Positions 3,260 to 53,756 are shown, counted from the stretch's first letter. The stretch: 64,000 nucleotides of DNA from Longimicrobiales bacterium (GCA_965238005.1 OZ250165.1:736001-800000), one strand, 5' to 3'. Notes: generated by a model from the letters alone, not told the origin. A program made the numbers and translations.

Positions 3260-4444
3260 TCAGCGGATCGGTTCGGCCTCCGGGTCTCGACGCTTGCCAG
3301 CGAGATACGCGGCCCAAGCCTGCATGACCTCGCGCCTCCGGTCCAGCAGGTCCGAGCGGGCGTAGGCGGCCTCGGCCTGACTGCGGACCTTGTGTGCAAG
3401 CGCCGCCTCCGCCACCTCGCGCGCCACGCCCGTCTCCGAGCACCAGTCGCGGAACGAGGACCTCATCCCGTGGGACGTTCCTGCGATGCCGAGACGCCGG
3501 AGCAACTTGCTGAACATCGAGGCGTGGATCCCTCCTCCCTTCGCGCCCCGGAACACGATCCCGCCGCCGCCGTGGAGCTTCCGGGCTTCCTCGAGGATCT
3601 CCAAGGCCCGCCCCGACAGGGGAACCCGGTGCTCGCGCTTCGCCTTCATGCGGTCGGCGGGAATGGTCCAGACATCGTGCTCGACCTCGTCGCACGCCGC
3701 GCCCCGGACCTCGTTCGAGCGTGTCGCGGTCAGGACCATGAACTCGAGCGCCAGCCGGACACCGGCATGGGACTCCGAGTCGCGGACCATGGCCAGAGCC
3801 TCCGCCACCTCGCCGTGCGGGAGCGCCTTGTGATGCCGGATGGCGTTGCCGTTGCGCGGCAGCGCGGCGGCGATGGCGTCCCCCGCCGGGTTGTCCGGCC
3901 GGTAGCCCTTCGCGACGGCCCACTTCATCACCGCGCCGATCCGCTGGTGCACGGCCCTCGCGGTCGCGGGCTTGCTCGACCAGATGGGCTTGAGGATGGC
4001 GAGCACGTCGGCCGTCGCGACCTCGCTCACGCGCTTCCGGCCGATGCGCGGATGGGCGTAGTCCCGCAGCGTCTGCAGCCACTGCCCGGCCATGCGGGAT
4101 GGGTTCTTCCAGGTCGGCGAGTGGATCGCGATCACCTTCTCGACGGCCGCCTCGAAGGTGGGAACCCCCGCGTCTCTCGGGTCGTGGCCCCAATGGACCG
4201 CCCGCCTGTTCTCCAGCGCCTTCTCTCTCGCCTCCCTGAGCGTCACGACCGGGTACGAGCCCAGTCCGAGATTGGTCGGCTTCCCTCCCACTCGAATGCG
4301 CTGGCCCCAGGACTTGGAGACGCGCCCGGACTTCATCCGGTGGACGCGGAGGTACAGGCCGAGCCCGCCGAGCCCGCCGTCGCCGTAGCGTCCGGGCGTC
4401 TTCACTCGCGCCACGAAGGCGGCCGTAAGGGGTCGTTTGCGCAT
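3260..4444 (-). CDS. int: P4-type tyrosine integrase (Int A)
   Basis: Arm-binding N-terminus (PGRYGDG...GLYLRV...LGLGSYPVVTL). Catalytic motifs ATRSNE, HRVPL, HGMRSSF, LAH, AAY. Confidence 0.95.
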   Translation of the reverse strand: MRKRPLTAAFVARVKTPGRYGDGGLGGLGLYLRVHRMKSGRVSKSWGQRIRVGGKPTNLGLGSYPVVTLREAREKALENRRAVHWGHDPRDAGVPTFEAAVEKVIAIHSPTWKNPSRMAGQWLQTLRDYAHPRIGRKRVSEVATADVLAILKPIWSSKPATARAVHQRIGAVMKWAVAKGYRPDNPAGDAIAAALPRNGNAIRHHKALPHGEVAEALAMVRDSESHAGVRLALEFMVLTATRSNEVRGAACDEVEHDVWTIPADRMKAKREHRVPLSGRALEILEEARKLHGGGGIVFRGAKGGGIHASMFSKLLRRLGIAGTSHGMRSSFRDWCSETGVAREVAEAALAHKVRSQAEAAYARSDLLDRRREVMQAWAAYLAGKRRDPEAEPIR

Positions 4445-4623
4445 GTGGTTAATCCTACCTGTGTATCATATATCGACGGATACACCATGGTACAATACGG
4501 TACGTACCGGCACAAGAGGGAGCCTGTAAACACGGCTAGGATATGCCATATCACATTGTAATAACACGCTTTACGGAATACTATGGGACCGCAGGGGACG
4601 ATGTTCGCGATCATACTGCCGTA

Positions 4624-4636
4624 CTTGTGGCAAAAG
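4624..4636. other. Putative att core of element A (CTT-GTGGCAA-AAG)
   Basis: Homology with the element B right end stops here. Same CTT-N7-AAG layout as the element B core. The coupling-protein ORF loses homology-like character at this point. Confidence 0.7.
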
Positions 4637-5163
4637 TCGCCCTTGACCTCGAGCACCAGGGCACTGGCCCGGCGCCCGGCGCGGTCGGCTTGCCACGAGA
4701 GGAGCTGCTGGGCGAACGGGTACATGCAGGCGGTGGTCTTGCCGGTGCCGACGGCGCCGACGACGAGGACGCCGGTGTAGAGCCCTGTCTCGGGAATGAC
4801 GAGCCAGGAGGGCCGCTCGCTCTCTCGCGGGACGACGGGATGGTGCAGCTCGCCGATCACGAGCGAGGGTGCGTCGTCCTCGGGCGAGGCGGGCCAGGCG
4901 GGGAGCCCGCCCCGGCCGCCGCCCCTTGCGGGCGGCTGAAGCCACACCCTCCAGACCGAGAGGCACACGCTCCCGGCGAGGACGACGACGATGGCCGGGG
5001 CCGCGTAGTACCAGACGCGGATCACGGTGTGAAGGCCCGGATCGTGGTAGGCGATGAGGTCCAGCACGGGGTTGCCGCCCATGCCGGGGAACGGCGCCCG
5101 GAAAGCGTGGCCGGCGGCCGCTCCCAGAGCGGTGCCGATGATGGCGAGCGTAGCCGGCCTCAT
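4624..5163 (-). pseudogene. virD4: 5' part of type IV coupling protein (VirD4/TraD-like), interrupted by element A
   Basis: Two N-terminal hydrophobic segments, Walker A GAVGTGKTT, and LVLEVKGDFC, after which the frame runs into the integrase upstream region. Confidence 0.8.
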
Positions 5164-5197
5164 CGGTCCAACACCCTTCCTGGAAGGATCGATGGCT

Positions 5198-5287
5198 CGG
5201 GAGCGACCCCAGGAGGGCGGGGGCAGGTGCGCAAACACACCTGGTCCCGAACCCGTACCAGGCCCTCGGACTGGGGGGTCGCTCCCG
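5198..5287. repeat. Cis cassette bounded by inverted repeat CGGGAGCGACCCC/GGGGTCGCTCCCG (type 1)
   Basis: 13-bp perfect IR; homologous to 43088-43183 in the opposite orientation. Confidence 0.8.
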
Positions 5288-5461
5288 TCCCGGTCAGTGC
5301 TGCCCGTGCGGCGCTGACCGACCCGGCCGCGTAGGCGTAAGACGTTGCCGTGTCGTGGCCTACACCGCAGCAGCGGCGCGCATCGCCGGAGGGCCAAAGT
5401 GCGCATCGGCCCCCCGCGTCGTTTGCGCACTCCAGTGCGGCCATGAGACGCGCGCCGGTCG

Positions 5462-5915
5462 TCACCGGTAGCGCGCTCCCGCGAGGCGCACCGTTTGCCA
5501 GGCGACGCCGCGGTGAATCGCCCCGCGGCCTGCCTGCCGGCGGGCCTGCTTCTCCAGCGCCACGCTGCGTTTCAGGGCGGCTTGCAGGCCTCCGAACTCC
5601 TCGAGGATCTGGATCGCGCCCTGAAGGATCGCCCGCTCGATCCGGGCAAGTTCCTCACGGATCCCGGCGTCGGACTCGCCGGGGCCGGACGCCTCAGCCC
5701 AGCCGCTCATCACGGCCAGGGCCCGGTCCATCTCCCGCGAAGTGCGGGCGACGGCGACGACCTCGACGGACCGGCCTTGGTTTTCGAGCGCGTGCCAGAG
5801 CCCGCGGTGCGCCGCTCCCCAGGAACGGAGCGCGGTCGAGGTGTCGTGTCCGGGATCGACGTAGACGAACACTGCACGGCCCGAGTCCAGTGCGACCGGC
5901 AGCTTGAGCGGGAAG
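5462..5915 (-). pseudogene. 3' half of split T4SS-associated uncharacterised gene
   Basis: FPLKLPVALDSGRAVFVYVDPGHDTSTALRSWG...LAGARYR aligns with the C-terminal half of 41942-42916. Confidence 0.9.
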
Positions 5916-6589
5916 CAGGGATCAATCTTCGCAAGTCCCGATGGGACAACGACTTGGCAGTACCTTGCGAGAGACGTGTATCACTGGGTGTGTGCGAAGA
6001 TCGTAAATCGTGTTACCCGTTGGGTTTAGGACAGAAACCCACGGACCACGGACCCACGGATGGGCGGCCTCGAGCGCAACAAACACGAGTCCAAGAAGCA
6101 GAGGGCCGGGAGAGGCCCCGTGGGGAAGACGGCGGTCGGCCCGAGGGCCTGGTACGGGCGCGGGGCCGTGCGCGTCTCCCTAAAGGCAGCCTAACTTATT
6201 GATATAGATGCATATTAGGATCTTCGCCATTTGATGATGCCCCCATAGCCCTGATGCGGTCCGTCGGGGCGAGCCGTGCCGTTGCCTCGCCGTGCCGGCC
6301 AATTGTCGTGTCAAGAGAACCGGAGGCCGGACCGGTGCGCAACGTGAGCCAGGCCGGAGTCACGGCCACGCCAGATCAGATCGAGATCCCGACCGACCGG
6401 TAGTCGCGCCCTATCTCCAGAGTGACGCCGCCCCCAGGGTCCCGGCCAACCGGCTCCCGAGGGCCAGCGCGTAGGCGAGTTTGGCATCGAGGCGGGTCCA
6501 CTCGCCAGCCTCGGACTCACGGACTCCAGGAAACCTGATTCTACTGCCAGTCACGCTGGAGGCCGAGCGAGCCGTCTTCGTCAACGTCG

Positions 6590-6960
6590 ACCCGGAGCAT
6601 CCGGCACAGTTGCTTCTCCTCGAGCTGCTTGCCAATCCATTGGAAAACACGAACGGACCGGTTTCCTCCACGGCACGTGTGCCGTGTCGAGAACCTCCAT
6701 GGTGCGGCCGCACAGTGGGACCCGGTGCTCGCGGTTCGCCTTCGTCTGCGAAGCCGGTCCACACGGTCCACACACCCTCGTTCCGATCGATCTCGTTCCA
6801 CTCCGCTCCAGGAATCTCGTCGCCGTCGGCACCAGGAACTCGAGTCCGCAATGGACCAACGTGCCCAAGGAGCAGGAGGGAGCGGAGAAAGCCGCCGGTC
6901 CGATGGCGGAGACGACCGCTCCTCGGTAGACCCGCGAGGGCAGGTACCGGCGCTCGATGC
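6590..6960 (-). pseudogene. Frameshifted P4-type integrase relic
   Basis: Pieces LEFLVPTA, AEWNEIDRNEGVWTV, KANREHRVPLCGR and GKQLEEKQLCRM lie in different frames and match the integrase at 36697-37926. Confidence 0.8.
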
Positions 6961-7041
6961 CGGGAGCCTCGAATGCGGCAACCTCCTCCGGTTCGGTCGG
7001 GAGCCACGGCAGCCGTTAGCACCTACAAACTATTGGATCTC

Positions 7042-8901
7042 TCAGCTCACCGTGGAGATGCGCGTGCTTTCTGAAGTTGTCGAGTTGTAAGTGGCCGAGA
7101 GGCCCGCAACATGTACGACTGGTTTTCCCATTGCCTTCTCGATTAGGCAACTCAGTCGCCGTCGTCTGTCTTCGAGAAAGTCGTTGAACGCATCCGCCCG
7201 GAGGAGTTCCGGCGAGAGGGCGTGGCTCGCAAGCAGATCATTCATCGCAACGTCGTCCAGTGCCACCTGCTTCTCTGCTTGGATTCTCGGCAGGTATCGG
7301 GAGGGGGCGTCGCCACCAATCTTACGATTGGCCTTGTAGGAAATCTGCGTCTTGTTGAGGATGCTATCGTATTGACCTTGGTCAATGTCCTGCTGATCCG
7401 CGCACCATTTCTTGGGGAAGATGTGGTGGATATCCAATGCGATTTCGTTCGCATCTAGCTCCTTGATAGTGGCCTTCCAGAACCAATCTTTGGAGCCTTC
7501 CCGCAGAACTAGCACATTAATGCCTTTGTAAGCTGCGCTCAGGCGTGTGCGCAGGGTGTCGAAACGCTCCGGTTGGAAATTGGCGTCGCGCACCGTGCGC
7601 GGAAGTGCGTCCTCATCGTCGAACCAGGCGAGCAGTTCATCGTAGTCGTTAGCCATGCGGGTCTCCACTGCACCGCCATAGAGTTCTCCCAGCACTCCAG
7701 ACCAGAACCAGCGCGCTAGCTTGTCGTAGATCCGCGGCTCAAGCCAGCGGTCGCCCAAGCGCGTGAGCACCGCTGCCAACGGAATGACTTGGGTGCTGTA
7801 GGGCAGCTCACGCCGGTGGTAGAAGCACTCTTTTTGCAAGAACCGGGCGGCATTTAAAAACCCCGCCTCCAGCATGTCGGCCCATCGTTTCCAAGCGTCC
7901 AGTGGTAGCCTAAGGACGTCGGCACGCTTGCCGCTGACCGGACGCACCTGCTTCCCGGTCTTACCGGCCCGTAAGTCTGCCTTTCTCAACTCGTGCGTAT
8001 GCAGCAGACTGATTCCTTGGAGGAACTCCGTGGCCTGAATGCCACTGAGGAGAACGTGGCCCTCCAGTCGTTTCTTCCGTGACTCAGCCTTGCGCGCCCT
8101 GGAGCCGAACCAGTCGTCCCTCAGGTTATAGCCCTCCGCTGCGTAGCTAGCGGTGACCAGTTCGAATACGGTAAGCGGCTCCCCACCGGTATTGACCTTC
8201 TCGAAGACCAAGCAGACCGCTTCCTTGGTGGTCTCTTTCTCCAACTGGATTACCGGGATTTGATAGTTGCGGAAAGGCTTAAGAACTTGGTTCCGAAACG
8301 CCATGTAGATGCCAAGCTTATCCGGCACCACCTCGTACAACGTCGTCTCCCAATCGTCGGAGTCCATTATCTGACTGCAGGGGAAATAGAACTCCCGGCA
8401 TTCCAGCTCGGTCGTGGCCAGATCTAGCTTCACATCGCGGCCGAAGTTGGTGCGCAGTTGCCTATTCTCATCGACAGCTATCACCGCCTCGTCGAGCGCG
8501 TGAGGGGTATCCACAGCTTTCCTGATATCGAAGTAGTAGTGGCGCTTTATCCTTGTGCCCTTGGCAGTCCTAGTGCGTACCGGCTCGTCAAGTGAGATGG
8601 CTTGGGTCAGGGTCGTGAGACGCTGCTGTCCATCAAGGATCAGTCTTTCCGGCGCCCGGTCCTTAGGTATCCTGTCCTCCAATCCTTCCACCGGACGGGT
8701 CTGGAAGCGAATCTCGCCACCGGCTTTGAGCAGCATTACCGCGCCTATCGGGAACGATCGACCAATGCTGACGAGCAGATCGCGAATGTGGTCGTCGTCC
8801 CAGACCCAGCCACGCTGGAAGTCTGGCAACTGGATCTTTCCTTCCTTGATTTCTCCCAGAAGTTGGTTTAGCGAAGCTTTGGTGCTGTCGAAGGTCGTCA
8901 T
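7042..8901 (-). CDS. DUF262 + C-terminal HNH (GmrSD-like modification-dependent restriction protein)
   Basis: QLPDFQRGWVW, LDGQQRLT, FEKVNTGG, DIHHIFPK...NKT...ANRKIG. Confidence 0.88.
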   Translation of the reverse strand: MTTFDSTKASLNQLLGEIKEGKIQLPDFQRGWVWDDDHIRDLLVSIGRSFPIGAVMLLKAGGEIRFQTRPVEGLEDRIPKDRAPERLILDGQQRLTTLTQAISLDEPVRTRTAKGTRIKRHYYFDIRKAVDTPHALDEAVIAVDENRQLRTNFGRDVKLDLATTELECREFYFPCSQIMDSDDWETTLYEVVPDKLGIYMAFRNQVLKPFRNYQIPVIQLEKETTKEAVCLVFEKVNTGGEPLTVFELVTASYAAEGYNLRDDWFGSRARKAESRKKRLEGHVLLSGIQATEFLQGISLLHTHELRKADLRAGKTGKQVRPVSGKRADVLRLPLDAWKRWADMLEAGFLNAARFLQKECFYHRRELPYSTQVIPLAAVLTRLGDRWLEPRIYDKLARWFWSGVLGELYGGAVETRMANDYDELLAWFDDEDALPRTVRDANFQPERFDTLRTRLSAAYKGINVLVLREGSKDWFWKATIKELDANEIALDIHHIFPKKWCADQQDIDQGQYDSILNKTQISYKANRKIGGDAPSRYLPRIQAEKQVALDDVAMNDLLASHALSPELLRADAFNDFLEDRRRRLSCLIEKAMGKPVVHVAGLSATYNSTTSESTRISTVS

Positions 8902-9217
8902 GCTGACATGTCCGTCTCGTCGAGTCTCTCGGTTGGCCAAGCGGAACGCGGTCGGTCGGGATTACCGATTCGGTCCGCGCGTGGATATGACTCCCGAATC
9001 TTGAACACTCCACCATTGTGAAGGTGACCTCCGGGAGCGGGTACTCGTGTGGTGAGCTTCCCAAGGCGCCGGTGGTCGACTCCGGACGGGATGCGATCCC
9101 CAACGAATCGTAACAGGGATCAGGACCGGAAGGGAGCCTTGGCGGTCCCACACCTGACGCCGCCCGCTGTAGCAACAATTGATACAGGTATTGCCGTAGG
9201 TAGTGGGTCAGTTTCAA

Positions 9218-10066
9218 TCAAACGAAATTCGGGGGCAGTAATTCCTCAATCTTCCAGACCCGATCCGTCAGACCGGCAGCCTTGGCCGGGGTCGTTTTGA
9301 TCCCACCCGCCTCCTTGGTCAGCGTCGTGTGTGCCTTGCAGAAATTATAGTACATGAAGTGAAGCGCCACGGCATACTGGTGGAACTCGACCGTCTTGCT
9401 GAAGGCATTCGTCAGGCGGGTGAACCGGCGGGAGTGCATCCGCAGCGTGAGGTTCGATCGCTCGACATGCGACGTGCAAGTGTCATTCAGGGCGGGGTTA
9501 CCCATAACGCGCTTCTTCTCGGACCCGAGGCATACGGGCGGGCTGTACCGGCGCTGATCTTCGGAGCTTTGGCCGTAGGCCTTCACCACCGTTCCGTAGT
9601 CTGCCCCACCCCACCCAAACGCTCGCTCTACGGCTCGCGGATAGACCCCGTGACCGTCAGTGGAGAGGTGGACTCGGCTCACTAGGCGGTCGGCCAGATC
9701 CTGCATGAACGGCAAGCCGGTCGCAGCTCCCCTGCATCCGACGCGGTAGGCGATCAAGAGCTTTGTGTCCCGGCAGAGCGCTGTCCACGTCCACACGTCT
9801 CCGCGACCCTGGCCCCTTTCTTCCTTTGGGATGTTGCGCTCTTTCGCCCCACAGAACGACCAGATTTCATCGCACTGTACGCGCTCGGACTCCACACCCC
9901 TTACGAGAGCGTCGTGCTGCTCCATGCAATACGCGCCCACGTTCTTGAGCAACCGAGAAACGGTATTCTTGGAAGTGCCGGTAAGGCGTGCGGTGGCCCG
10001 GATCGAATTGCCCTCGACCAGTGCTTTGAGGATCATGGCCCGCTTTTCGTCGCTCAGTTTGTTCAT
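9218..10066 (-). CDS. IS1-family DDE transposase (single ORF)
   Basis: N-terminal HTH (GNSIRATARLTG); QCDEIWSF, STDG, HVERSNLTLR...RLTNAFSK. Confidence 0.9.
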   Translation of the reverse strand: MNKLSDEKRAMILKALVEGNSIRATARLTGTSKNTVSRLLKNVGAYCMEQHDALVRGVESERVQCDEIWSFCGAKERNIPKEERGQGRGDVWTWTALCRDTKLLIAYRVGCRGAATGLPFMQDLADRLVSRVHLSTDGHGVYPRAVERAFGWGGADYGTVVKAYGQSSEDQRRYSPPVCLGSEKKRVMGNPALNDTCTSHVERSNLTLRMHSRRFTRLTNAFSKTVEFHQYAVALHFMYYNFCKAHTTLTKEAGGIKTTPAKAAGLTDRVWKIEELLPPNFV

Positions 10067-10159
10067 CGGTAGCCCCTTTTGCTACCCCAATATATGCTTG
10101 ACCGCTCAAGTAGTCAAGCAATATAGTGGCTCACTTCTAGGTTCTGAGGTTACTATAGA

Positions 10160-10933
10160 ATGATGGATAACACCCTGACCCTGACCCTGGCCCTTGACGG
10201 GCAAGTAACCCTTGATGATTTCGCAAGGGCTATCAGCCGTTTTCACGGCATAGTTGTGGCATTATCTAGGGATATCCCCGGCACCGAAACGATTACCTGG
10301 GAAGTGTCAGACCTTCAGGTCGGAAGTGCTATTGCCGACGTGACGGGACATGGGCCAAGCTCCGATGTTGAGCTGGTTGTTCGAGAATACGAACGGCTGG
10401 GCGAGGAATTGGAAAGGCGCGGACCACTCAACTTCTCTCCCGCCGTCCAAGCGGAAGCAAGGGGCTTAGTGGAGCTCATTAACGGTCGCATTGAAGCTAT
10501 TCGCATGGAGACAGCGCACCAGGATCATTTAATCGGAGGCGGCGAACTACCCGAAGTCGGAGTACCTGAGGTTCTAGAGTTCCCACGTTCGGCCCTTGGG
10601 GCGATCCAGGGCACCATAGAGACCCTATCTCGCCGAGGGGGGCTGAAGTTCACCCTTTACGACTTGATGCACAAGCGAGCGATTTCCTGCCACCTCCCAC
10701 CGGGAAGCGAGGGCGTGATGAGGGACGCCTGGGGAAAGAATGCAACCGTACATGGTATCGTGCGGAGAGACCCTGCGACGGGGCGACCAACCTCCATCCG
10801 CGAAGTCTCCAAGGTGGAAACCGTTCCCGAAAGCGGGCCAGGAGATTGGCGACTGGCCGAGGGTGCCGCAGTTCGTCGCCCGGGCGACGAACTGTCCCCC
10901 GAAGATGCGATTCGGCTGATCCGGGATGCCTGA
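10160..10933 (+). CDS. Hypothetical protein, probable partner/antitoxin of the downstream PIN protein
   Basis: 257-aa ORF overlapping the PIN gene start by 8 nt; lies inside the IS. Confidence 0.7.
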   Translation: MMDNTLTLTLALDGQVTLDDFARAISRFHGIVVALSRDIPGTETITWEVSDLQVGSAIADVTGHGPSSDVELVVREYERLGEELERRGPLNFSPAVQAEARGLVELINGRIEAIRMETAHQDHLIGGGELPEVGVPEVLEFPRSALGAIQGTIETLSRRGGLKFTLYDLMHKRAISCHLPPGSEGVMRDAWGKNATVHGIVRRDPATGRPTSIREVSKVETVPESGPGDWRLAEGAAVRRPGDELSPEDAIRLIRDA

Positions 10934-11402
10934 CAGCCCACAACGCATCTACTGGGATGCGTGTGTCTTCCTGTCGTTTATTGAGGGACACCCCGACCGC
11001 TCTAAGGCGATTCGGACTTGGCTAGAAAAGGCGGAAAAGGGGAAGGTCGTGATCGTGACTTCCACCCTTTCAATTGTGGAAGTCGCATTTGGCAAGCAGG
11101 AAAAAGATCGAGGCGCGCTGATCCCGGAGGAGGAAGCCAAGATCAACCACCTTTGGACGCCTGAATCGCCCGTGGCGCTGGCTGAGTTTCACACAAGCAT
11201 AGCGCTTGAGGCCCGACGTTTGATGCGGGATGCGATGGCCTCGGAAATTGGGCTGAAACCGGCAGATGCGATCCACCTGGCGACGTGCCGAAACTTGGGA
11301 ATTGATGAATTTCATACCTACGACGGGAAGCTTGGCGGGGCCGCTGGAATTTCCCAACTCACGATTACCGAGCCCTCTCTTGAGCAGGGAGAGTTATTCT
11401 AG
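10926..11402 (+). CDS. PIN-domain (VapC-like) ribonuclease
   Basis: IYWDACVF, STLSIVEV, LKPADAIHLAT, FHTYD acidic PIN motifs. Confidence 0.88.
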   Translation: MPDSPQRIYWDACVFLSFIEGHPDRSKAIRTWLEKAEKGKVVIVTSTLSIVEVAFGKQEKDRGALIPEEEAKINHLWTPESPVALAEFHTSIALEARRLMRDAMASEIGLKPADAIHLATCRNLGIDEFHTYDGKLGGAAGISQLTITEPSLEQGELF

Positions 11403-11653
11403 CCCTGCTTCTCTTTGCTCCACCTAGCCCTGGCTGCTTTCTGGGCGATCTCCCGCTTCCGCTCTGGCGAAAGCGCCTCGGCCCTCGCCTTACCACCCTT
11501 GAGGCCCCCGAGACGCCCCAGCGCGACCGCAGCGGGATTCTTCGCGGGTATTGTCTCGGGTTCATCTTCGGCGGTAGCTTGCTGGACTACATCGAATGCG
11601 ATGACGTTGGGGTCGTCTTCGTCGGGTCTTTTCTTGCTTGAGCGCTTGGGCAT
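11399..11653 (-). CDS. Small basic protein with KGG-type motif
   Basis: KNPAAVALGRLGGLKGGKARAEALSPERKREIAQKAARARW. Confidence 0.8.
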   Translation of the reverse strand: MPKRSSKKRPDEDDPNVIAFDVVQQATAEDEPETIPAKNPAAVALGRLGGLKGGKARAEALSPERKREIAQKAARARWSKEKQG

Positions 11654-11757
11654 ACCTGAAAGCTAGCGCGTAGGGGCCACCCGGTGTCAACCCCTTCGAC
11701 CCCCTCTCGGATTTCAAACTGACCCACTACCTTGCCGTACGCCATCTTGACACATGG

Positions 11758-11905
11758 CTATTGCCGTCCGATCATCCACGGCTCGTCGTTCCAGGCGTTG
11801 AAGATCGGCCTGCCGCTGCCGGTCGCCCTCTCCAGCGCACGGCGGTTCGCTCCGCCCCGGATGGAGTTGGTCGCGACCAGGCCGACCCGCTTCGCGGCCG
11901 CCTGA
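11758..11905 (-). pseudogene. Fragment of MmeI-like type IIG/IIL DNA methyltransferase
   Basis: RVGLVATNSIRGGANRRALER...IFNAWNDEPW; no intact flanking ORF. Confidence 0.65.
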
Positions 11906-19037: not shown

Positions 19038-19065
19038 GAGCTACCTCCAGGTGAACGCGACAGCT

Positions 19066-20040: not shown

Positions 20041-20043
20041 GCC

Positions 20044-44881: not shown

Positions 44882-44969
44882 TCTACACAGCCAAGTTCCC
44901 GGGTGGGAGACCTTGATCGTTCCCCCGGCACCTTACTCTGATGAGACGGTATAAGGAGCGTCAGCTTCG

Positions 44970-45578
44970 TCACAGTTCTGTGGCACTAGGGTGTTCCGGC
45001 CAAAAGTAACACATCGGCGCAAGCCAGTAGCTTAGCGGATCCTGCTCCGACTTATGCCGTTGAACGGCGAGGTCTGTACGCCAACGCTTCTCGAAACCTT
45101 CCCTCGCGCAAACGGCAGCAACGGCGGCGTCACGCTCATCCTCGTTCTTCCAATCGGTACCAACTTTGAAGCATTTAGCAAAGGCCGATTCGTCGAGATT
45201 GAGGGCTCGTAGCAAAGCCTTGGGGTGCGATTCGGTAATCCTTGTGCAAGGGAAGGCTTGCCGGACCCGGAAGGCTAGCATCGCACCGCCTACGAGCGCT
45301 GCACCCCTCAGCGAGTTCGCCGACTGCACTGTCCCGGAAGGAATGCTGTAACCCTTTCGAATCCTTTCGTCCGCCTCTCGGCCGCCGCCCCCGCGTGTAG
45401 ACCACCACATCGGTGCGTCAATGCCTAAGCCGAGCGGCTTTCCCTTCGCGATTATTTTTTCGGCAGCTTTATCCACCGAGGAGACTGTAGTGCAACACAG
45501 CGCACCGGCCGCGTCAAGGAAAGCCAAACCGAACTTGTCCTTCCCGCCGGGATCGGCACCGACCCAGAATCCGCTCAT
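44970..45578 (-). CDS. DUF429-like predicted nuclease (RNase H fold)
   Basis: VGADPG, LGIDAPM, ITESHP, DERDAAVAA. Confidence 0.8.
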   Translation of the reverse strand: MSGFWVGADPGGKDKFGLAFLDAAGALCCTTVSSVDKAAEKIIAKGKPLGLGIDAPMWWSTRGGGGREADERIRKGYSIPSGTVQSANSLRGAALVGGAMLAFRVRQAFPCTRITESHPKALLRALNLDESAFAKCFKVGTDWKNEDERDAAVAAVCAREGFEKRWRTDLAVQRHKSEQDPLSYWLAPMCYFWPEHPSATEL

Positions 45579-45818
45579 CGCTCTCAATCCAACGAAGCCG
45601 TATGCAACGTGCCACTGTCAATATTAAAGGATTGAAAGAAGTGGCGCACGGACAGGCTGGCGACGGGCTGATCCGGGCTACGCGACCGCACCTGGCAGAC
45701 GATACGGCGCTCTGCGAGGGAGGGTGTGCTTCCCCCATGGCGACTGGGACGGTCGTCCTTTCGCCAGGATGATGTTCTTTGTCATAGCTGTTCCTCCCGT
45801 CGTCGTGACTCACTCATG

Positions 45819-48800
45819 TTACGATAGTGGCACTGTGATGTGTTTGGGGTCTTCCGCCACCCAGCGCCAAGCTCTGCCACTGAGGATCCACCGGGTAGCG
45901 ACATGGGCGGGGTTCTCAATGGGTAGCACGTGGAAGGCATTGTCGGCCGTTTTCTCCACGACGTACAGATACCACGAACCCGCTGCTTGCCCGTCCGTCG
46001 CTTTGAATGCTTCGCGTACTTGCGCACGGCTCAACTCTACCACCTCGTCTTCATCCCAGGAACGTCCCTTGCCCTTCACCTCGATCAGTCGAACTGCGCT
46101 CGTCTTCGGATCGACGCTGCGGATATCCCAGCCGGTCTGACGAGGATCGCCAAGCTCCGGTTCGCGGTCAGCCTCTCTCTCGTATTGCGCCGCGGCCTCT
46201 CGGTACTCTTCATCACCCAGGTCCCCACGGGAGTCTTTGTTGGTAGTCCCGGGCTCATCCGTGCCGTCCTCTTCATGGCTTGGTGCAATCTCACCTTTCA
46301 GTGAACTCTTCAACTGCTCGACCAGGGAGTTTTGCTTCGCAAGAGCTCTGCCTTTGGGGTAGGAGTTGCCCGTGGGATCCGACGCTCCAGGTGTACGGGC
46401 AGGGGCGTCGACCGCCCCGGCGTCGGGGTGCCCCTCTCCCTGTGCCTCGGCCTGAGTCGTGTCGTCAGCTTCGCTCGGGTCGTCCTGCCCCATCGTTTGT
46501 TTCGTCATCCACACGAGACTGCCTTGCGCGTCCGTCGATTCATAACCGGGGACGTGGGACCGCGCGAACTTTTCCACCGACAAACGGAAATCCTCCTCGG
46601 TGCCGATAGCGGACAACATGCCGGTAAGGTCGGCAGCGAGGTTGGCACGTTGGCCGAAGGAGAATTCTCGTAGGAGTTCCTTGGCCGCGTCGGCACCAAA
46701 CTCTACCGGCCGACCCGCGACCGTGAGGGTACCCCGGTGCAAGCGGGCGTTCACGGGCACATGTTGGGCAGCATCGCTACCGACGCGAACGTCCACAGCA
46801 AGCTTACGAGCGGACACTAACGCTGGCGGCGCGCCAGTATCGCTGCCCGTTCCGTCGCTTTCCGCACGTTCGCTTTGCCGAACCCGTAGGAGAAGCCCGT
46901 GGATGATGTCGAACCGTGAGATCCAGTTGTCGTCAACGGCAGTTTCGTCTCCGACACGCCAATCCAGAGTGACCACCGATGACAGGAGCGGCACGCTAAT
47001 GGCATCCGCAGTGCGAAACTGCTCGTCCCGTGAACGGCCGAGGTGACCGGCTGTGACTATTCGCACCGGGACATGGCCGGGAAAGAACCTCTTATCCTCG
47101 ATGTCATCAAGATAGGTGCTGTCGGACTCCGCTAAAACGATCCATTCGCGTTCCGCAAAGACGATGGCGTCGGGAAAGGCCGCGGTCCATCGATCGTGCA
47201 GCGAGGTATCCTCTTCACAATCTTCTAGGCAGTAGGCATAGGCCATCGGGAGGACGTCGCGGACCTCGTTCGCTAGCCCTTCTGGTAACGACCGGGCGCG
47301 CTTCCAGATCTCGAGGATGTAGTCCAGTGATTGTTCACCTGTGGTCGTCTCCGGGAAGTCGCTGGGAAAATCGGGATGCTGAAGCTCCATCCGAAGTGTC
47401 TCGTTGATTCGATCAAGCGGCACAATCCAGCCGCCGAGCGCTCCCCGACGCCCTCCAACACGCTGAACGATCCGCTTGAGCGGAATACGGCGACCGTCGT
47501 CCGACGGCACTCTTAAGTCTTGTAGAGCCTGCTCCAAGAGACGCAAGTCAGCGTCCGTCATTACCTGTTCGCGGCAGTCCGAGATAAGTTGCGCAAGCTC
47601 CTCTGCTTCGATGTGAGTGCCTGTCGCCAAGAGTCTGCGGAGCGAAGTGGCTTCTGGTATCGCCGTGCCAAATTCCAATCCCTCCTGGTCCAATACCGAC
47701 AGGAGTTCGGGTAATAGTTGTGCAACCGGTGCGTCTTCTCGCACCGGATCGGGTGTTGGAAGTGCATCTTGCGGACACCTGAGTTTCTCGTCGTCGCAAG
47801 GCACCCACGCGAGCTCGGCCAGCTTGCTCGCCCAAGCACTCGGCCTGTTCCCCACGGATTCATACTTCGAGTAATAGAAATACGACGCCTTCCGCTTGCC
47901 CGTTTGCTTGAGGGCTCCCAAGCCGTCGTCTAGCCAAGTGGCCAAGGCTTTCCGGAGTTCTTCGGGTGCATCCGGATCGGGAAGACTCGGCTCGATATCG
48001 AAATCCAGAAGTAGATAGCCACTATCGTTCGATTCACTGATCATGGCGACGTCGCAGTCAAGGAATTCCGCAACGCGCTGATCCTCCACTCGCCAACACC
48101 GTTCCTCTAAGGGTTGTACTTGGAGCTTGCCCCGGGCGTGGGCCTTCTCGAAGAAAACACGCCACTCATAGGTACCGCCGCTCTTGGGGTCGTCTTCGAA
48201 ATAGACCGCGGCGATTGCGGGAGCCGCTGGAAATAACTGGCGACGGTCCTGGCCGTGCTCGACATATGGATTGGCTAGGAGTGCCTCGCTAGTCGGCACA
48301 CCTTGTAGGTCGCTCTCTGATTCCACGAGCACGTAGGTCAACAGTCCAGGACGATTCCGATGCTTCGCCCAATGCCCGAGTGGTAGGAGCACCGACCAGT
48401 CTGGATTGGCCGATGACCCTACTAGAGCGTTCACGGCATCCTTGACGATGTCCTGGAGACTGATGCCGTGGGCATGGTCCTCGACCCAGTCCCAAACTTG
48501 AGAGAGCCGCACACGTTCGGGCTCGTTCTGTCTCCCTTGGCGGAGGGCGGAAACCCATCCTTCGTCCAAACGGTTGGCGTCCTGAATGACGGATTGCATG
48601 AACTGGCGAGTCTCCCGACCGCCCGGCTCGTGTTCCGTGGGGAGCGGCTCGTTGAGGAATGTCGTCTCGCTCACCGACAACCACTGCCCGGTGACCGATC
48701 GGATGCAAGGAAGCTCGATGTCCGTCCACGCGTCGTCAGGGCCTAGGTCGGCGACAGCCGCCCAGATGTGGAAGAGCAGGTGCCGACGGATCTCATGGTT

Positions 48801-50321
48801 GTCAGGAAGTGTCTCCCACCAGTCCTCCAGACCTCCTTCCCACGCGTGCTCTAAGTCGCGCGGTAACATCTCAGTCCGAAGCTCAAGTCGCCCAAGAAGC
48901 TCTACCGCACCGCGTCCGAGCACATCATCCCTGAGCACGGACCCTTTCAGGAGAACCGCAGGTTGTAAGTCCGGTTGCGCCCTGAATGCCTTCGCGAGTG
49001 GGACGGGCGGAACGAGAGCATCCCTCGGCTTGGCGTATGCCAGCTTGCTGGTCCCCGCAGTCCAAACCGGAATCACCGTCGTGTCCTCAAAGCGGTCCCG
49101 TAATCGTGACAACCAATCGTCCTCTGCAAGGAGCGCTTCAAGGCCGCTTGCTTCGGTCGATGGCAATGCGAGTGCCTGGAAGGCTATCTTCGCAGCATGG
49201 GGCTCTACAAGCGTATCTGCGGACCATTCGAGGAACTGTGCCAATATTTCTACGATGCCATCCGCGATACCGCGTTGCCAGGGATTGTCCTCGAGCCCTC
49301 TAAGCCCGCTGCGTGAGAGGTCCAACAGCCAGTCGGCGTTGACGTGGAGGCCAAACGGCAACGTGACCTCCGTGGGCAAAGTGGCATAAACAGACCCTCT
49401 GTTCGGTGGCGCCGGTAGACCTTCGTTATCCAGGGGGAGCACTCCAAGAATCTGGCGCGGCCTGCCGGCGTCGGCATACACTTGATCGCGTTCATCCTTG
49501 GCAGGTCGAATTTTCCTGTGTTCGAGAAAACAGGCGATCGCTTGCTTAGAAGGTTGGAATTGCGTCGAAAATAGTTGCCACATCCGATTCTCTGCTTCCG
49601 ACAGCGCCGTCGCTTCAAGGCTCCCGCTATGTTCCCCGGTGACTCCCAATTCCCAAACACACCCGTTCACCTCAAGGCGCTTTAGGTTTGACGCTGCGAG
49701 GATGGCGAGGGGTGTGCGATCATTGTCGGGGAGGAAGCGCGCCAAGTCGGATTCGAGATCCGCTCGTTGGTTTGTTCGTCTGCTTAGTTCGAAACGGGTA
49801 GTGAATCCCGGTTCGGGCAGCGAGACCGCGCCATCCCATATCGGAACCACAGCCCCAAGCAGATCCGTCTGTACGTCTCCATATTCTTCGCCTCGGATCT
49901 GGGCGATTTCATAGCGGAATGTCCAACCCCAACCAGAGATTCGAGCTTCCTGAAACCGCATGAAGACGCTCTTGAAGCCGACGCCCATGAAGCCCACAGT
50001 GGAGGCACCCTTGGTCGATCGGAAAACCATCGAGAGTGCCTCGACATCTCCCTCGTCGAGTGCACGCGTTCCATCATGCTGAAAGATCAGGGCGTCGCCG
50101 TCATCAGAAATGTGAATCGCAATGGACCTCGCAGACGCATCGAGAGCATTCTGGATCAGTTCGAAAATGTAGACCCAACGGTGCTTGAAGGTCAGCTCGA
50201 GCGCGCGTAGCATGCCACGCCCTTGCGGCCTGTCATAGAACTCTCTATTCGTGTTGGCGAGCCCTGCGACGAACTCTCCTCGCTCTTTCCTAGCTGCGTC
50301 CACTCGGACTCCTGCCTGCAT
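45819..50321 (-). CDS. Sacsin/NO VEIN-like GHKL ATPase with C-terminal DUF3883 nuclease-like domain
   Basis: FELIQNALDA, FQHDG, VGFMGVGFKSVF, LHVNADW; C-terminal GWDIRS...LIEVKG...LSRAQ. Confidence 0.85.
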   Translation of the reverse strand: MQAGVRVDAARKERGEFVAGLANTNREFYDRPQGRGMLRALELTFKHRWVYIFELIQNALDASARSIAIHISDDGDALIFQHDGTRALDEGDVEALSMVFRSTKGASTVGFMGVGFKSVFMRFQEARISGWGWTFRYEIAQIRGEEYGDVQTDLLGAVVPIWDGAVSLPEPGFTTRFELSRRTNQRADLESDLARFLPDNDRTPLAILAASNLKRLEVNGCVWELGVTGEHSGSLEATALSEAENRMWQLFSTQFQPSKQAIACFLEHRKIRPAKDERDQVYADAGRPRQILGVLPLDNEGLPAPPNRGSVYATLPTEVTLPFGLHVNADWLLDLSRSGLRGLEDNPWQRGIADGIVEILAQFLEWSADTLVEPHAAKIAFQALALPSTEASGLEALLAEDDWLSRLRDRFEDTTVIPVWTAGTSKLAYAKPRDALVPPVPLAKAFRAQPDLQPAVLLKGSVLRDDVLGRGAVELLGRLELRTEMLPRDLEHAWEGGLEDWWETLPDNHEIRRHLLFHIWAAVADLGPDDAWTDIELPCIRSVTGQWLSVSETTFLNEPLPTEHEPGGRETRQFMQSVIQDANRLDEGWVSALRQGRQNEPERVRLSQVWDWVEDHAHGISLQDIVKDAVNALVGSSANPDWSVLLPLGHWAKHRNRPGLLTYVLVESESDLQGVPTSEALLANPYVEHGQDRRQLFPAAPAIAAVYFEDDPKSGGTYEWRVFFEKAHARGKLQVQPLEERCWRVEDQRVAEFLDCDVAMISESNDSGYLLLDFDIEPSLPDPDAPEELRKALATWLDDGLGALKQTGKRKASYFYYSKYESVGNRPSAWASKLAELAWVPCDDEKLRCPQDALPTPDPVREDAPVAQLLPELLSVLDQEGLEFGTAIPEATSLRRLLATGTHIEAEELAQLISDCREQVMTDADLRLLEQALQDLRVPSDDGRRIPLKRIVQRVGGRRGALGGWIVPLDRINETLRMELQHPDFPSDFPETTTGEQSLDYILEIWKRARSLPEGLANEVRDVLPMAYAYCLEDCEEDTSLHDRWTAAFPDAIVFAEREWIVLAESDSTYLDDIEDKRFFPGHVPVRIVTAGHLGRSRDEQFRTADAISVPLLSSVVTLDWRVGDETAVDDNWISRFDIIHGLLLRVRQSERAESDGTGSDTGAPPALVSARKLAVDVRVGSDAAQHVPVNARLHRGTLTVAGRPVEFGADAAKELLREFSFGQRANLAADLTGMLSAIGTEEDFRLSVEKFARSHVPGYESTDAQGSLVWMTKQTMGQDDPSEADDTTQAEAQGEGHPDAGAVDAPARTPGASDPTGNSYPKGRALAKQNSLVEQLKSSLKGEIAPSHEEDGTDEPGTTNKDSRGDLGDEEYREAAAQYEREADREPELGDPRQTGWDIRSVDPKTSAVRLIEVKGKGRSWDEDEVVELSRAQVREAFKATDGQAAGSWYLYVVEKTADNAFHVLPIENPAHVATRWILSGRAWRWVAEDPKHITVPLS

Positions 50322-50724
50322 GGCTTGCGTGGTCTGGTGGCGGTTATCTTACAGATCCTCGCTGTTCATGGCGAACGTCGAGCAGGAACGAACTCCATGC
50401 GCAGCGGCCATCGCGGATCGTGCGGGACAGCATTGGGCCGCTGGGTGGCCACGAATTACGCGGACCCCGCTACGCGTGCCACATGGCTCGACCAAGAGAT
50501 AGAGCGGGATCGGGAAGAAGTTGGGTCTTGCGAGGCTTAATCCGCAGACTCGCTGGCAGACCCGGCGCCCTGATTCGATCCACCCCACCTCCTCATCGGC
50601 TCCGTTTCCTTCTCGCGGGATGGTTGGACCGCCGCTCCGGAGCGACGCGGTCGCTGTTGCGGCTATCGCGACCGAGGCCCCCGGCTGGTTCAAGCGGTCC
50701 TCCAGAGCGTGGGTGGACGAGTTC

Positions 50725-50805
50725 GTTTAGTGCACGGGAGCCAGCCTACGCAATGTGAAACATTGCGGTCTGGCCAAGGGGACGCTGCGCCCCCCTTGCA
50801 CCCCC
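50725..50805 (-). other. Second, inverted oriT-like site in element D
   Basis: On the minus strand: CGCAATGT-TTC-ACATTGCG hairpin, then TAGGCTGG/CTCCCGTGC, with a tail resembling 54166-54198. Confidence 0.55.
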
Positions 50806-50897
50806 AACTTCCCGGGCCGCTGCCGGGGCAGCGAGCGGTGGGTGCCGCCGTCGCGAACCGCGTCGCCGGTGCGCTCCCCGCGGACCGCCTCACCGTC

Positions 50898-51015
50898 ATG
50901 GCGGCCGCACGCACGCCGCCTACGAGGTCGCGGCGACCGACGATGGCGCGGAGGCGAACGTGGACCGTGCCTGCACGCGCCATTGAGCGCGAGCGGAGCC
51001 GCCTGGCCAGGCTCC
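50898..51015 (+). pseudogene. Decayed mobC relic
   Basis: RRRTWTVPARAIERERSRLARL versus RVRTWTVAHSEVERERTRELARL in mobC at 53817-54074. Confidence 0.6.
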
Positions 51016-51084
51016 ATCGGGCGCGACCGGACACGGCTCGCACGATGGGCGAGCACGCACCCCGCAGCGGAGCGCGGGCGTCCT

Positions 51085-51190
51085 TCGGGATCGAAGGGGC
51101 GGAGCCCCTCGCCAGCCCCTGCCGGGGACGCGCGAAGCGTGGCCCCAAAGGGTATGCTGGCTCTTGACCCTTAAGGGGTCATGAGCCAGC
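51085..51190. other. oriT-like site of element D plus hairpin
   Basis: Near-identical to 3180-3255 and 54120-54172. Confidence 0.6.
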
Positions 51191-51229
51191 CGTGGATCGG
51201 CCTCGGCTCGCGCCTCAACGGCTCGCGCC

Positions 51230-52465
51230 TCAGCGGCTGGGACCGGCCTCCGGGTCTCGACGCTCGGTGGCCAGATACGCGGCCCAATCGGCCATCAAGA
51301 TGCGCCTGCGCTCGAACAGATCCGAGCGAGCGTAGGCGGCCTCCACCTTGTTGCGGACCACGTGCGCCAACGCCGCCTCCATGACCGCATGGGGGGTGTC
51401 CGTGCATTCGGCCGCCCAGTCCCGGAACGACGACCGGAAGCCGTGCGGCACGGCCGCGATCGCGTTCTCCCGGACCAGTTGGCGCAGCTGCGGGTCGGCG
51501 AGTGGCCTCCCGCCCTCCCGGGCGAAGACCAACCGAGCGGCGCCATTGGCCAGCGTCCGCGCCTCGTCGAGAATCTCCAGCGCCCGGCGGCACAGGGGCA
51601 CCCGGTGCTCGCGCTTCGTCTTCATGCGCATGGCGGGAACCGTCCACACGCCCTCCACCGCGTCGATCTCCGGCCACTCGGCCCGCCGCACCTCGCCCCA
51701 CCTCGCCGCCGTCAGCAACAGGAACTCGAAGGCCAGCTTTACGACCGGCAGGGCGTCCGAGGACTGCACTGTCCCGAGAGCCGCCGCTACTTCGCGATGC
51801 GGCAACGCCCTCATGTGCCGCACCACGCGGTGCTGCGGGCCGAGCACCGATTGTACCCGGTCGCACGGGTTGTCGGTGCGGTACTCCATCGCCACCGCCC
51901 ACTCCAGCACCGAGCGCATGCGCTGATGCACGGACCGGGCCATGGCCATCTTCGCGTGCCAGATCGGAGCGAGGACCTCCAGAACATCGGCGGCCGTGAC
52001 CTCCGAGACGGGCATCTTGCCGATGCGCGGGAAGGCATGGCGCCTCAGGCTCGTCATCCAGTTGTGGGCATGTCGTTGGTTGCGCCAACCGGACCGCTTC
52101 TGCTCCAGGACGCGCTCGGCGGCTTCGGCGAAGCTCGGCATGCCCCGGGCGCGCCGTCTCTCGGCGAGCGGATCGCCGCCCTCGCGGGCCAGCCTGCGGT
52201 TCGCCCGCGCTTTTTCGCGGGCATCGGCGAGCGGGACCAGTTGGGCGCTGCCGAGCCCGAAGTCGCGCCGCCGCCCGCGAATGACGAGCCGCTGGACCCA
52301 GCTTCGGGCTCCGCTCGGCTGGACGTAGAGGTAGAGCCCGTGGCCGTCGCAGTATCTTCCGGGAGGCGCCGCGCGCACGAATGCGGCCGAGAGCGCCTTG
52401 TGGGGGTGGCGGCCTTTCGGCTTCGTTTCCCGTGGCGGATTCGGGGATTGGGTTACGTCATCCAT
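51230..52465 (-). CDS. int: P4-type tyrosine integrase (Int D)
   Basis: GRYCDGHGLYL, AARWGEVR, HGFRSSF, LAH, AAY; start MDDVTQ after GGAG. Confidence 0.95.
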   Translation of the reverse strand: MDDVTQSPNPPRETKPKGRHPHKALSAAFVRAAPPGRYCDGHGLYLYVQPSGARSWVQRLVIRGRRRDFGLGSAQLVPLADAREKARANRRLAREGGDPLAERRRARGMPSFAEAAERVLEQKRSGWRNQRHAHNWMTSLRRHAFPRIGKMPVSEVTAADVLEVLAPIWHAKMAMARSVHQRMRSVLEWAVAMEYRTDNPCDRVQSVLGPQHRVVRHMRALPHREVAAALGTVQSSDALPVVKLAFEFLLLTAARWGEVRRAEWPEIDAVEGVWTVPAMRMKTKREHRVPLCRRALEILDEARTLANGAARLVFAREGGRPLADPQLRQLVRENAIAAVPHGFRSSFRDWAAECTDTPHAVMEAALAHVVRNKVEAAYARSDLFERRRILMADWAAYLATERRDPEAGPSR

Positions 52466-52616
52466 TACTCCATAATATGGAGGATGAGGATGGATATCAA
52501 GGGACACCACGGGGAACACAGGGCGAGGATACATATGCATAACCCTATGTAATAACAACAGATACGAAACACCACCGGATGTCACGGGATTTCTATAGAC
52601 TCTTAGCAACTGTTGT

Positions 52617-53756
52617 CGGCGCAGCTATGGCGCCGGAGAATGGGGCCGGAACCGGGTGAGGGTCTTCCCCGATCCCAAGACCGGCTTGTACCAGATCGAG
52701 TGGCGAGAGAACGGGCGCAGGCTCACAAGGTCGCTGCAACACCGCGACTGGAGGCAGGCGAAGACGCAGGCGGACGAGTTCGCTGCGGGATTCGCCGGGC
52801 CGGAGCTGAACGGCAAGAAGAACGCCGAGCCCGAGCCGCTCACGCTGGGCACGCTTTTTGACATCTACGGTGAAGAGGTGACGCCCACCAAGGCCGAGCA
52901 GACACGGCGGCGCGACAGGACCGCGACGAGGATGTTCCTCCAGTTCTTCGGCAGGGACCGAGACCCGGCAACGCTCTCCCAGCGCGACTGGGACCGATTC
53001 ATCGGCGCGCGGCGCGCGGGAAGGATCGGCATCTCGGGCAAGCCCGTGTCCAACAGGACGATCGAGTGGGACCTGACGTTCCTGATGGCCGTGCTCAACT
53101 GGGCGGCGAGGTCGAAGGACGAAGGGGGCCGCCCGATGCTCGACAGGAATCCGCTGAAGGGCCTCAGGAAGCCCAGGGAGAAGAACCCCACCCGGGTCGT
53201 CCTCACCGAACAGGAGTACCAGGGGTTGTTGAGGGTGTCCCGGGAGGTGGACTGGCGGTTCCATGTCGCGCTCGTACTCGCGCATGAGACCGGGCACCGC
53301 ATCGGTGCCATCCGCAAGCTCCGGTGGTCCGATATCGACTTCGAGGGCGAAGCGGTGCGGTGGCGGGCGAAGCACGAGAAGACGGGCTACGAGCACACCA
53401 CGCCCGTGACCGACGAGGCGTTGGACGCTTTGGAGGAAGCGCGAGCGATGAGCGCCGGGACCGGGGACGGGCCGGTGCTGCCCGCCCCGACGGATGCCTC
53501 GCGGTGCGTGGGCCGGTCGCTGCCGAGCTTCTGGTGGCAGAGAGCCCAGACGCTCGCGGCGCTGGAACCGAAGCGGGGCCGAGGCTGGCACTCGCTGAGG
53601 CGGAAATTCGCGTCCGACCTCATGGACCATCCGCTCAAGGTGCTGTGCGAACTCGGAGGCTGGAAGACGGCCAAGACCGTCCTCCAGTGCTATCAGAGAG
53701 CCGACGAGGGACAGCTGAGACAGGCGCTCGCGGACCGCCGGAGAGTTCGGGCCTGA
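52617..53756 (+). CDS. Tyrosine recombinase Int E (5' end detached; internal GTG at 52656 possible)
   Basis: ETGHRIGAI, EKT, HSLRRKFA, LGGWK, QCY. Confidence 0.88.
   Translation, partial: RRSYGAGEWGRNRVRVFPDPKTGLYQIEWRENGRRLTRSLQHRDWRQAKTQADEFAAGFAGPELNGKKNAEPEPLTLGTLFDIYGEEVTPTKAEQTRRRDRTATRMFLQFFGRDRDPATLSQRDWDRFIGARRAGRIGISGKPVSNRTIEWDLTFLMAVLNWAARSKDEGGRPMLDRNPLKGLRKPREKNPTRVVLTEQEYQGLLRVSREVDWRFHVALVLAHETGHRIGAIRKLRWSDIDFEGEAVRWRAKHEKTGYEHTTPVTDEALDALEEARAMSAGTGDGPVLPAPTDASRCVGRSLPSFWWQRAQTLAALEPKRGRGWHSLRRKFASDLMDHPLKVLCELGGWKTAKTVLQCYQRADEGQLRQALADRRRVRA

Follow-up and report, generated by a model that had tools for sequence, protein, structure and literature searches.

Probable site-specific islands with P4-type integrases inside genes of a VirB-type conjugative element family

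Classical P4-type islands occupy the 3′ ends of tRNA and tmRNA genes and do not disrupt their target. Here we describe three related elements (A, B and D) that resemble P4 and CP4-57 islands in their three-domain integrase, in an integrase gene (int) beside the left attachment site (attL), in an arm region and, for a relative in another genome, in an AlpA partner, but that hit internal codons instead; just 1 of the 24 integrases of this family in the genome lies near a tRNA gene. They lie in a 64,000-nucleotide stretch (hereafter the window) of a Longimicrobiales bacterium (GCA_965238005.1, OZ250165.1:736001–800000), a Gemmatimonadota-like genome that holds many copies of a VirB-type family of integrative and conjugative elements (ICEs). 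We consider it very likely that A, B and D are site-specific islands, each with its own P4-type integrase and with attachment (att) sites inside genes of that ICE family.

The closest described systems are integrative and mobilizable elements (IMEs) of Firmicutes. For Tn5252-type ICEs, Guedon et al. 2017 (PMC5704250) report serine-recombinase IMEs at internal sites of traG (VirD4), Maff2 and SNF2 genes, the named cases being IME_Sco1050_traG_site1 and site2, Tn6104 and IMESp2907. They also hypothesize that induction of the ICE triggers excision of the IME and restores the conjugation module; the idea of a switch is thus not new, having been proposed there for Firmicute IMEs in traG. Like those Tn5252-superfamily IMEs, the elements studied here are small and sit at specific internal sites of ICE genes, disrupting the gene; the Firmicute sites include two in the VirD4-type coupling-protein gene. 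Those IMEs have serine recombinases and usually carry replication or mobilization genes, whereas the window has P4-type tyrosine integrases in a Gram-negative phylum, with defence genes and no relaxase; at least ten positions in six genes are used here, probably including the integrase gene of the ICE itself. IMEs of Tn916- and ICESt3-type ICEs (PMC5704250) also combine a tyrosine recombinase with a target inside an ICE, but theirs is the non-coding nic site of the origin of transfer (oriT), used by another integrase clade in other hosts, rather than coding sequence. Islands mobilized by SXT/R391 ICEs (PMC5704250) likewise have an integrase but no conjugation genes and rely on an ICE; they reside in the chromosome, not inside the ICE, and carry a mimic of the helper oriT, a role that an inverted repeat within B could play.

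We found no such elements for Gemmatimonadota or with P4-type integrases in the open-access literature. The insertion itself is ordinary site-specific recombination with unusual targets. What is new is the use of tyrosine rather than serine recombinases, the Gram-negative phylum and the many target sites; the kind of element is already known.

Insertions in X, rec and virD4

Among 67 candidate open reading frames (ORFs) of the window searched against Pfam, four, all on the minus strand, have the complete P4-type architecture (Arm-DNA-bind_3, Phage_int_M and Phage_integrase) above cut-off. IntA and IntB are 89% identical, and IntC and IntD are each 50–52% identical to IntA. Six residues, R242, K267, H325, R328, H351 and Y361, which we take to be the catalytic R-K-H-R-H-Y set of tyrosine integrases, are invariant in the alignment of all four.

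Element B lies in the gene after virB8, here called X. Its 13-bp core, CTTCCCGCTCAAG, stands at both ends (5903–5915 and 21408–21420), and backbone homology halts at 5918 and 21408 (blastn). Read on the minus strand, X runs to ...YFPLK and meets a stop directly after the core, followed by a 180-bp arm. The halves of X on either side of B share reading frame and phase, and they are contiguous at eight places in the genome, one of them within the window (tblastn). The direct repeats, the in-frame halves and the uninterrupted paralogues together establish B as a precise 15.5-kb insertion.

Element D has an 11-bp repeat, CGGCGCAGCTA, at 43875–43885 and 52617–52627. An empty site at genome 679685–679775, 97% identical, runs unbroken where positions 43885 and 52617 are apart in the window, and all nine alignments of paralogues of the target gene, rec, begin at 52617. 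As a Pfam-matched ORF (52656–53756, plus strand), rec is a tyrosine recombinase distinct from the P4-type integrases; its true start (ATGATG) is at 43851. Because the frame of the empty copy opens MMARTRRVRRSYGAGEW... and paralogues align from residue 1, D must lie in codons 9–12, leaving rec cut off from its own promoter and start codon. IntA and IntB point the same way as the genes they interrupt, whereas IntD and rec are divergent. The rec gene is the last backbone gene in intact ICE copies, and one copy (genome 2837434–2838731) ends 69 bp before a tRNA-Ile gene. It is therefore probably the integrase of the ICE, and the position of that copy hints that a tRNA gene is the integration site of the ICE. 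An integrase of its own and flanking att repeats, by which an IME is recognized, are thus present in B (13 bp) and D (11 bp).

Element A interrupts virD4, the gene for the coupling protein. The remaining fragment covers residues 1–187 of an intact 679-amino-acid paralogue (tblastn), includes the Walker A motif GAVGTGKT and breaks after VKGDFCH at CTTTTGCCACAAG on the minus strand. Homology to six or seven virD4 paralogues stops at 4624, beyond A's core the sequence is 88% identical to the arm and integrase of B, and the three paralogues that are intact each span A's site. The core of A occurs once in the genome, so there is no second copy, and genome-wide no virD4 piece starts near residue 188 (starts lie at 212, 245, 248 and 499–501). 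The far end of A may have been lost in a deletion, two ICE copies having been joined when two elements recombined with each other.

The original prediction had described A, B and D as related integrase elements lodged in mobility genes, with no relaxase, and had proposed a search for uninterrupted alleles. The mapped targets are indeed virD4, X and rec, no relaxase was found in the window by the Pfam scan and further searches, and uninterrupted alleles exist for X (eight paralogues), rec (the empty site above) and virD4 (three intact genes).

In A and B the arm between core and int start measures 180 bp; in C and D it is about 150 bp long. Just 3′ of the int stop in A, B and D is a 35-bp palindrome, GCTGGCTC(A/T)TGAC...GTCA(T/A)GAGCCAGC, which the palindrome scan did not find in element C. 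All 12 copies in the genome follow a family integrase, 7–102 nucleotides beyond its stop. The surrounding block is better conserved between A and D (85% identity) than the integrase genes themselves (66%). The common layout of arm, int, hairpin and cargo proposed for these elements therefore stands, but the oriT-like role given to the hairpin does not: a genome-wide palindrome scan placed no copy in any ICE backbone, so an oriT mimic is unsupported. The palindrome is not a classical terminator, as it has no T-run, and Rfam at the gathering threshold gave no match in the window.

Occupied genes across the genome and the phylum

To place these insertions among the rest of the genome, matches of the backbone proteins and IntB (tblastn) were tabulated by script, counting an integrase gene if at least 240 residues aligned. 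Fourteen of the 24 family members start within 700 bp of an ICE backbone gene, at 10 positions in six genes. Eleven of these face an internal break of an ICE gene, in virB4 (residues 269 and 744), virB8 (84), X (178), virB11 (242), rec (about 10) and virD4 (187, about 250 and, three times, about 500); the other three share one site 17–29 bp upstream of the virD4 start codon. For seven integrases both target halves are present and collinear, giving element sizes of 4.2–15.5 kb. The single integrase within 1 kb of a tRNA gene is 353 bp from tRNA-Val and has a relaxase gene alongside. No tRNA gene occurs in the window, the nearest being more than 200 kb distant. Targeting of ICE genes rather than tRNAs, which had been proposed from the window, thus holds across the genome (14 against 1 of 24). 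Because the same sites are occupied in further copies and in a second species, the pattern is not due to chance.

Sampling of 201 genomes from the phylum found the integrase family (E ≤ 1e-60) in 19, this one included, with 10 of 23 and 8 of 11 genomes in two families. We surveyed 1.5 kb upstream of int at 28 loci in the other 18 genomes, a survey of neighbours rather than of mapped junctions. Two of these loci are ICE-linked, one beside virD4 residues 1–185 (genome G132) and one beside rec from residue 72 (genome G071), and they account for two of the three integrases closest to A and B (at least 79% identity). Only part of the clade, then, targets ICEs.

In G132, the halves of virD4 (residues 1–184 and 176–587) lie 9.2 kb apart, interrupted at the same position as by A, and another virD4 copy is intact. 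The intervening element is flanked by the core CTTCTGCCAC at both ends and has a B-like distal arm. It encodes the integrase, AlpA, an OLD-like nuclease, NikA/MobC and a MobA/VirD2-like relaxase, together with a cytosine methylase (Dcm), a GIY-YIG protein and Vsr. With these mobilization genes of its own, the complete A type would be a canonical IME, judged by gene content, and the window copies lack its mobilization genes.

Cores, the X–virD4 inverted repeat, cargo and host

In lambda-type recombination, new targets are known to be reached through a changed 7-bp overlap, and the lambda and HK022 integrases are close relatives with different att cores. A and B compare well with that pair. They are alike in integrase, int-proximal arm and distal arm and differ in seven bases of the core (A, CTT-TTGCCAC-AAG; B, CTT-CCCGCTC-AAG), that is, mainly in the 7-bp overlap; unlike those of lambda and HK022, their targets are genes of another mobile element. 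Both occupied X sites match the core of B exactly, and all eight uninterrupted X paralogues, of which the one in the window has its empty site near 42464, differ from it by at least one base, several of the changes being synonymous. These differences are compatible with escape by the ICE, or with chance.

Every ICE copy has an inverted repeat of about 115 nucleotides between X and virD4 (IG-IR), 181 nucleotides after X and about 127 before virD4. Its 12-bp outer stem (GGGAGCGACCCC/GGGGTCGCTCCC) is invariant, and its two inner hairpins vary in sequence, with compensatory changes that preserve pairing. Extra copies lie 175–250 bp past three integrase genes, one of which is that of B, in the opposite orientation. 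In the nhmmer search, two elements outside the canonical ICE positions carry IG-IR alone, and a third carries the whole X gene too. The structure is a candidate origin of transfer or single-strand structure; the extra copies could represent an ICE origin of transfer copied by the islands, or recombination debris. In the window, two further copies face each other 138 bp apart (43089–43206, plus strand; 43345–43457, minus strand), and another is at genome 2807030–2807144.

X itself has more than 1,100 full-length homologues of about 310 amino acids in public data, all unnamed and several from Gemmatimonadota. It matches no Pfam family, even at E ≤ 1, falls only in unnamed clusters of the protein atlas and, as a structural model, has no Foldseek match in the PDB at E ≤ 0.001. 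The AlphaFold model (pLDDT, the predicted local distance difference test score, of 76) has an N-terminal winged helix, and residues ~18–145 resemble a MarR-like winged helix (Z of about 8, VIA-align wide). The second domain has no clear relative in that comparison; the C-terminal half weakly resembles the restriction endonuclease SdaI (Z 7.7, root-mean-square deviation 4.0, 122 residues aligned), a match within the noise of the tool.

The cargo of these elements appears rich in nuclease and anti-phage defence genes (Table 1), judging from PADLOC matches to known or candidate defence models, which are family matches; they bear out the nuclease-rich, defence-laden cargo originally described. The helicase-nuclease of B (12174–17687) is also Hhe- and MkoC-like, and further PADLOC matches are TmtA-like (8e-30), GmrSD/HEC-06 (2e-178, left of IntC) and PDC-M55C (1e-28). 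Within B, at ~6580–6912, is a degraded fragment of a fifth P4-type integrase. The X copy joined to it (codons ~136–171, 78% identical) resembles an old attL junction with an internal deletion of about 840 bp.

The locus is decayed. The VirB-type operon of the host ICE reads from an AlpA-domain gene (29741–30232) to virB8 (21884); a second AlpA-domain gene is at 54250–54807. In intact ICEs, virD4 is followed by virB11, ardC and two unnamed genes, all of which are absent to the left of the window; with the rest of virD4, virB11, ardC and rec missing, the ICE that hosts A and B is a truncated remnant. The far end of A is lost, and C is a remnant as well. The last ~12 codons of IntC are replaced, its homology to a 98.8% identical copy (4.82 Mb) ending at 36733. 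The 5′ fragment of an IS3-like transposase gene that abuts its arm comprises, by eye, orfA and the first orfB codons, its ORF matching no Pfam family, and the outer 75 bp of this fragment are repeated across IntC at 36497–36571. Its end point is identical next to two further C-type integrase copies and in two integrase-free places. With that end the same whether or not an integrase is alongside, the fragment does not define the target of C. Copies of the fragment occur elsewhere at genome 486386, 492609, 716676 and 4824529.

Other genes nearby include one for a 417-amino-acid protein (38544–39797, minus strand) whose N terminus matches models of nuclease effectors (CBASS-type endonuclease, SduA/DUF4263); its neighbours are the IS3-like fragment on one side and, on the other, an IS256-family transposase split over two frames (40182–41457). 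The segment 62098–63498, with DinB-like and Excalibur/GmrSD_C-like genes, is a recent duplication, 97–99% identical to genome 4788225–4789794 and partly to 2174139–2174411. At 208–1386 (plus strand) is a trypsin-like protease with a collagen-triple-helix repeat, and paralogues of it lie in two other integrase elements (genome ~702.8–703.2 kb and ~2112.6 kb).

Table 1 Features of the window and of the related element in G132 (positions in the window unless a locus is named)
Feature	Position	Strand	Basis
A: conserved GC-rich block including palindrome, after int stop	3122–3256		repeat families D5/D9
A: 35-bp palindrome	3222–3256		palindrome scan
IntA, P4-type tyrosine integrase, 394 amino acids	3260–4444	-	three Pfam domains
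A: 180-bp upstream arm and attL core CTTTTGCCACAAG (4624–4636)	4445–4636	-	88% identical to arm of B
virD4-like coupling-protein gene, N-terminal ~187 codons only, cut by A	4637–5163	-	tblastn
Diverged IG-IR copy of host ICE	5166–5296	-	nhmmer E=4e-4; alignment, fold
Gene X 3′ half and attR core of B (5903–5915)	5462–5915	-	repeats, tblastn
Element B, 15.5 kb, in gene X	5916–21407	-	13-bp direct repeats; homology limits
B debris: 99-nucleotide X copy joined to last third of fifth P4-type integrase	6580–7011	-	repeat families D6, D10–D12; frames; tblastn
B cargo: GmrSD_N-like protein	7042–8940	-	Pfam; PADLOC PDC-M55C/HEC-05
B cargo: IS1-family transposase	9218–10066	-	Pfam DDE_Tnp_IS1
B cargo: PIN-domain protein	10926–11402	+	Pfam
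B cargo: 1837-amino-acid helicase-nuclease (AAA_11/12 and MTES_1575 restriction endonuclease)	12174–17687	-	Pfam; PADLOC PDC-S37 3e-71
IG-IR copy inside B, 220 bp after intB stop, opposite orientation	19710–19824	+	nhmmer E=6e-27; alignments
B: 35-bp palindrome after int stop	20006–20040		palindrome scan
IntB, 394 amino acids	20044–21228	-	Pfam, alignment
B: 180-bp arm and attL core (21408–21420)	21229–21420	-	sequence comparison
Gene X 5′ half, winged-helix domain kept	21421–21887	-	tblastn; fold results
Host ICE transfer operon: alpA, virB2, virB3, virB4, virB9, virB10, virB6, virB8	21884–30232	-	Pfam
IntC, 409 amino acids	36697–37926	-	Pfam, alignment
IS3-like transposase 5′ fragment, 465 bp, abutting arm of IntC	38070–38534	-	blastn; IS3 by eye from frames
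Uninterrupted X paralogue, 324 amino acids, empty B-type site, one base different in overlap	41942–42916	+	tblastn/blastn
rec, first 11–12 codons, left core copy (43875–43885)	43851–43885	+	empty-site comparison
Element D, 8.7 kb, in rec	43886–52616	-	11-bp direct repeats; empty site
D cargo: PD-T4-3-like GIY-YIG protein	44156–44881	-	PADLOC 1e-82
D cargo: 1500-amino-acid TmtA-like protein with NOV_C	45819–50321	-	Pfam; PADLOC
D: 35-bp palindrome after int stop	51156–51190		palindrome scan
IntD, likely start MDDVTQ near 52465, ORF open back to 52609	51230–~52465	-	Pfam, alignment
rec remainder (ICE-type tyrosine recombinase), right core copy (52617–52627)	52617–53756	+	Pfam, paralogues
Complete A-type element in virD4 of G132, 9.2 kb	L045 2549–11704		tblastn, core repeats

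Readings of the nested insertions

In the mechanism that we propose, each island has an arm of ~150–180 bp beside int and a short core doubled at both ends, which for A and B presumably comprises a 7-bp overlap between CTT and AAG. The integrase would recombine the attP of the island with the identical core in the target gene, and close relatives may gain new targets by altering the overlap. Insertion truncates the target gene, as seen at these junctions, and precise excision of B or D would restore the frame. The islands would deliver their defence cargo. Those in the window lack transfer genes, so they presumably need the ICE in order to spread, travelling within it or being mobilized in trans.

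Several observations weigh against A, B and D being such islands. A has a single junction and C has no definable ends. No recognizable excisionase lies inside B or D, and no excised, circular or restored forms were seen in metagenome contigs; four contig sets compared with 3000–22500 gave joints with short sides (20–45 letters), and none of the joints listed is at 5915/21408. In the other genomes only 2 of the 28 loci have an ICE gene upstream of int. The neighbours at other loci are a tRNA gene (1), a family integrase (2), genes for leucine-rich-repeat proteins (5) and genes for DUF222 proteins (3), and the rest have assorted chromosomal genes or nothing recognizable; most flanks are chromosomal genes.

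That the arrangement results from integrases stacked at one att site, such as a tRNA gene, or from misassembled repeats is very improbable. The region is highly repetitive and rearranged, and tandem integrases do occur at two loci in other genomes (L040 and L041), but the window has no tRNA gene, A, B and D have three distinct cores in three genes, each with empty paralogues, the same virD4 site is occupied in G132 and the genome is a single 4.84-Mb contig. ICE genes may simply be conserved, chromosome-neutral landing sites on a vehicle, with the damage a tolerated cost; intact ICE copies would supply the broken function in trans, and the islands need not excise. The genome has at least eight ICE backbones or remnants and three intact virD4 genes, many insertions are in rearranged or truncated ICEs, and islands persist in dead ICEs, including that of the window. 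Internal sites of essential genes, rather than gene ends, are nevertheless odd for a harmless passenger, and the mismatch of all eight empty X sites to the core of B fits selection for escape, although it may be chance. We regard this account as nearly an even call, falling just on the doubtful side.

The original prediction saw here a hyperparasite system that disables the ICE until the parasite excises, in essence the hypothesis already put forward for Firmicute IMEs. Islands would keep an essential ICE gene switched off until induction of the ICE, on a trigger such as its AlpA-like protein, causes them to excise and restores the gene; the ICE would then mobilize them, so that its transfer is coupled to their own. 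The restored frames expected on excision of B and D speak for such a hyperparasite, as do their intact integrases and cores without an excisionase, next to an ICE operon that starts with an AlpA-domain gene. An IG-IR copy, possibly an oriT mimic, lies in B and in one other element, and the same model has been proposed for Firmicute IMEs (PMC5704250). Neither regulation nor excision has been observed, however, and a switch cannot operate here: the host ICE of A and B is truncated and would stay dead even if B excised, leaving nothing to switch back on at this locus. IG-IR alone is found in only two elements beyond canonical ICE positions, with X present too in a third, and the G132 element, a complete relative of the A type, encodes a relaxase and AlpA itself and so has no need of those of the host. 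We find this coupling rather doubtful. Broader still, and unlikely in our view, is an ICE-satellite system analogous to phage satellites, in which a P4-type clade would retarget through its 7-bp overlap, gate ICE transfer and spread a defence payload. Such islands would carry the putative transfer-origin module of the ICE (IG-IR, once with X) and the 35-bp palindrome and would rely for excision on the AlpA-like protein of the ICE, thereby gating its transfer, and ICEs might escape through overlap changes of the kind seen at the eight empty X sites.

As site-specific islands, A, B and D would mean that nesting in conjugation genes is no longer a serine-recombinase curiosity of streptococci and clostridia but a strategy of a distant phylum too. 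Its scale in one genome (14 of 24 integrases, 10 sites and six genes) could shape the evolution and decay of ICEs. The related integrases with different targets form a natural series that is useful for studying how att specificity changes, and the cargo suggests that anti-phage defence genes travel on satellites borne by ICEs.

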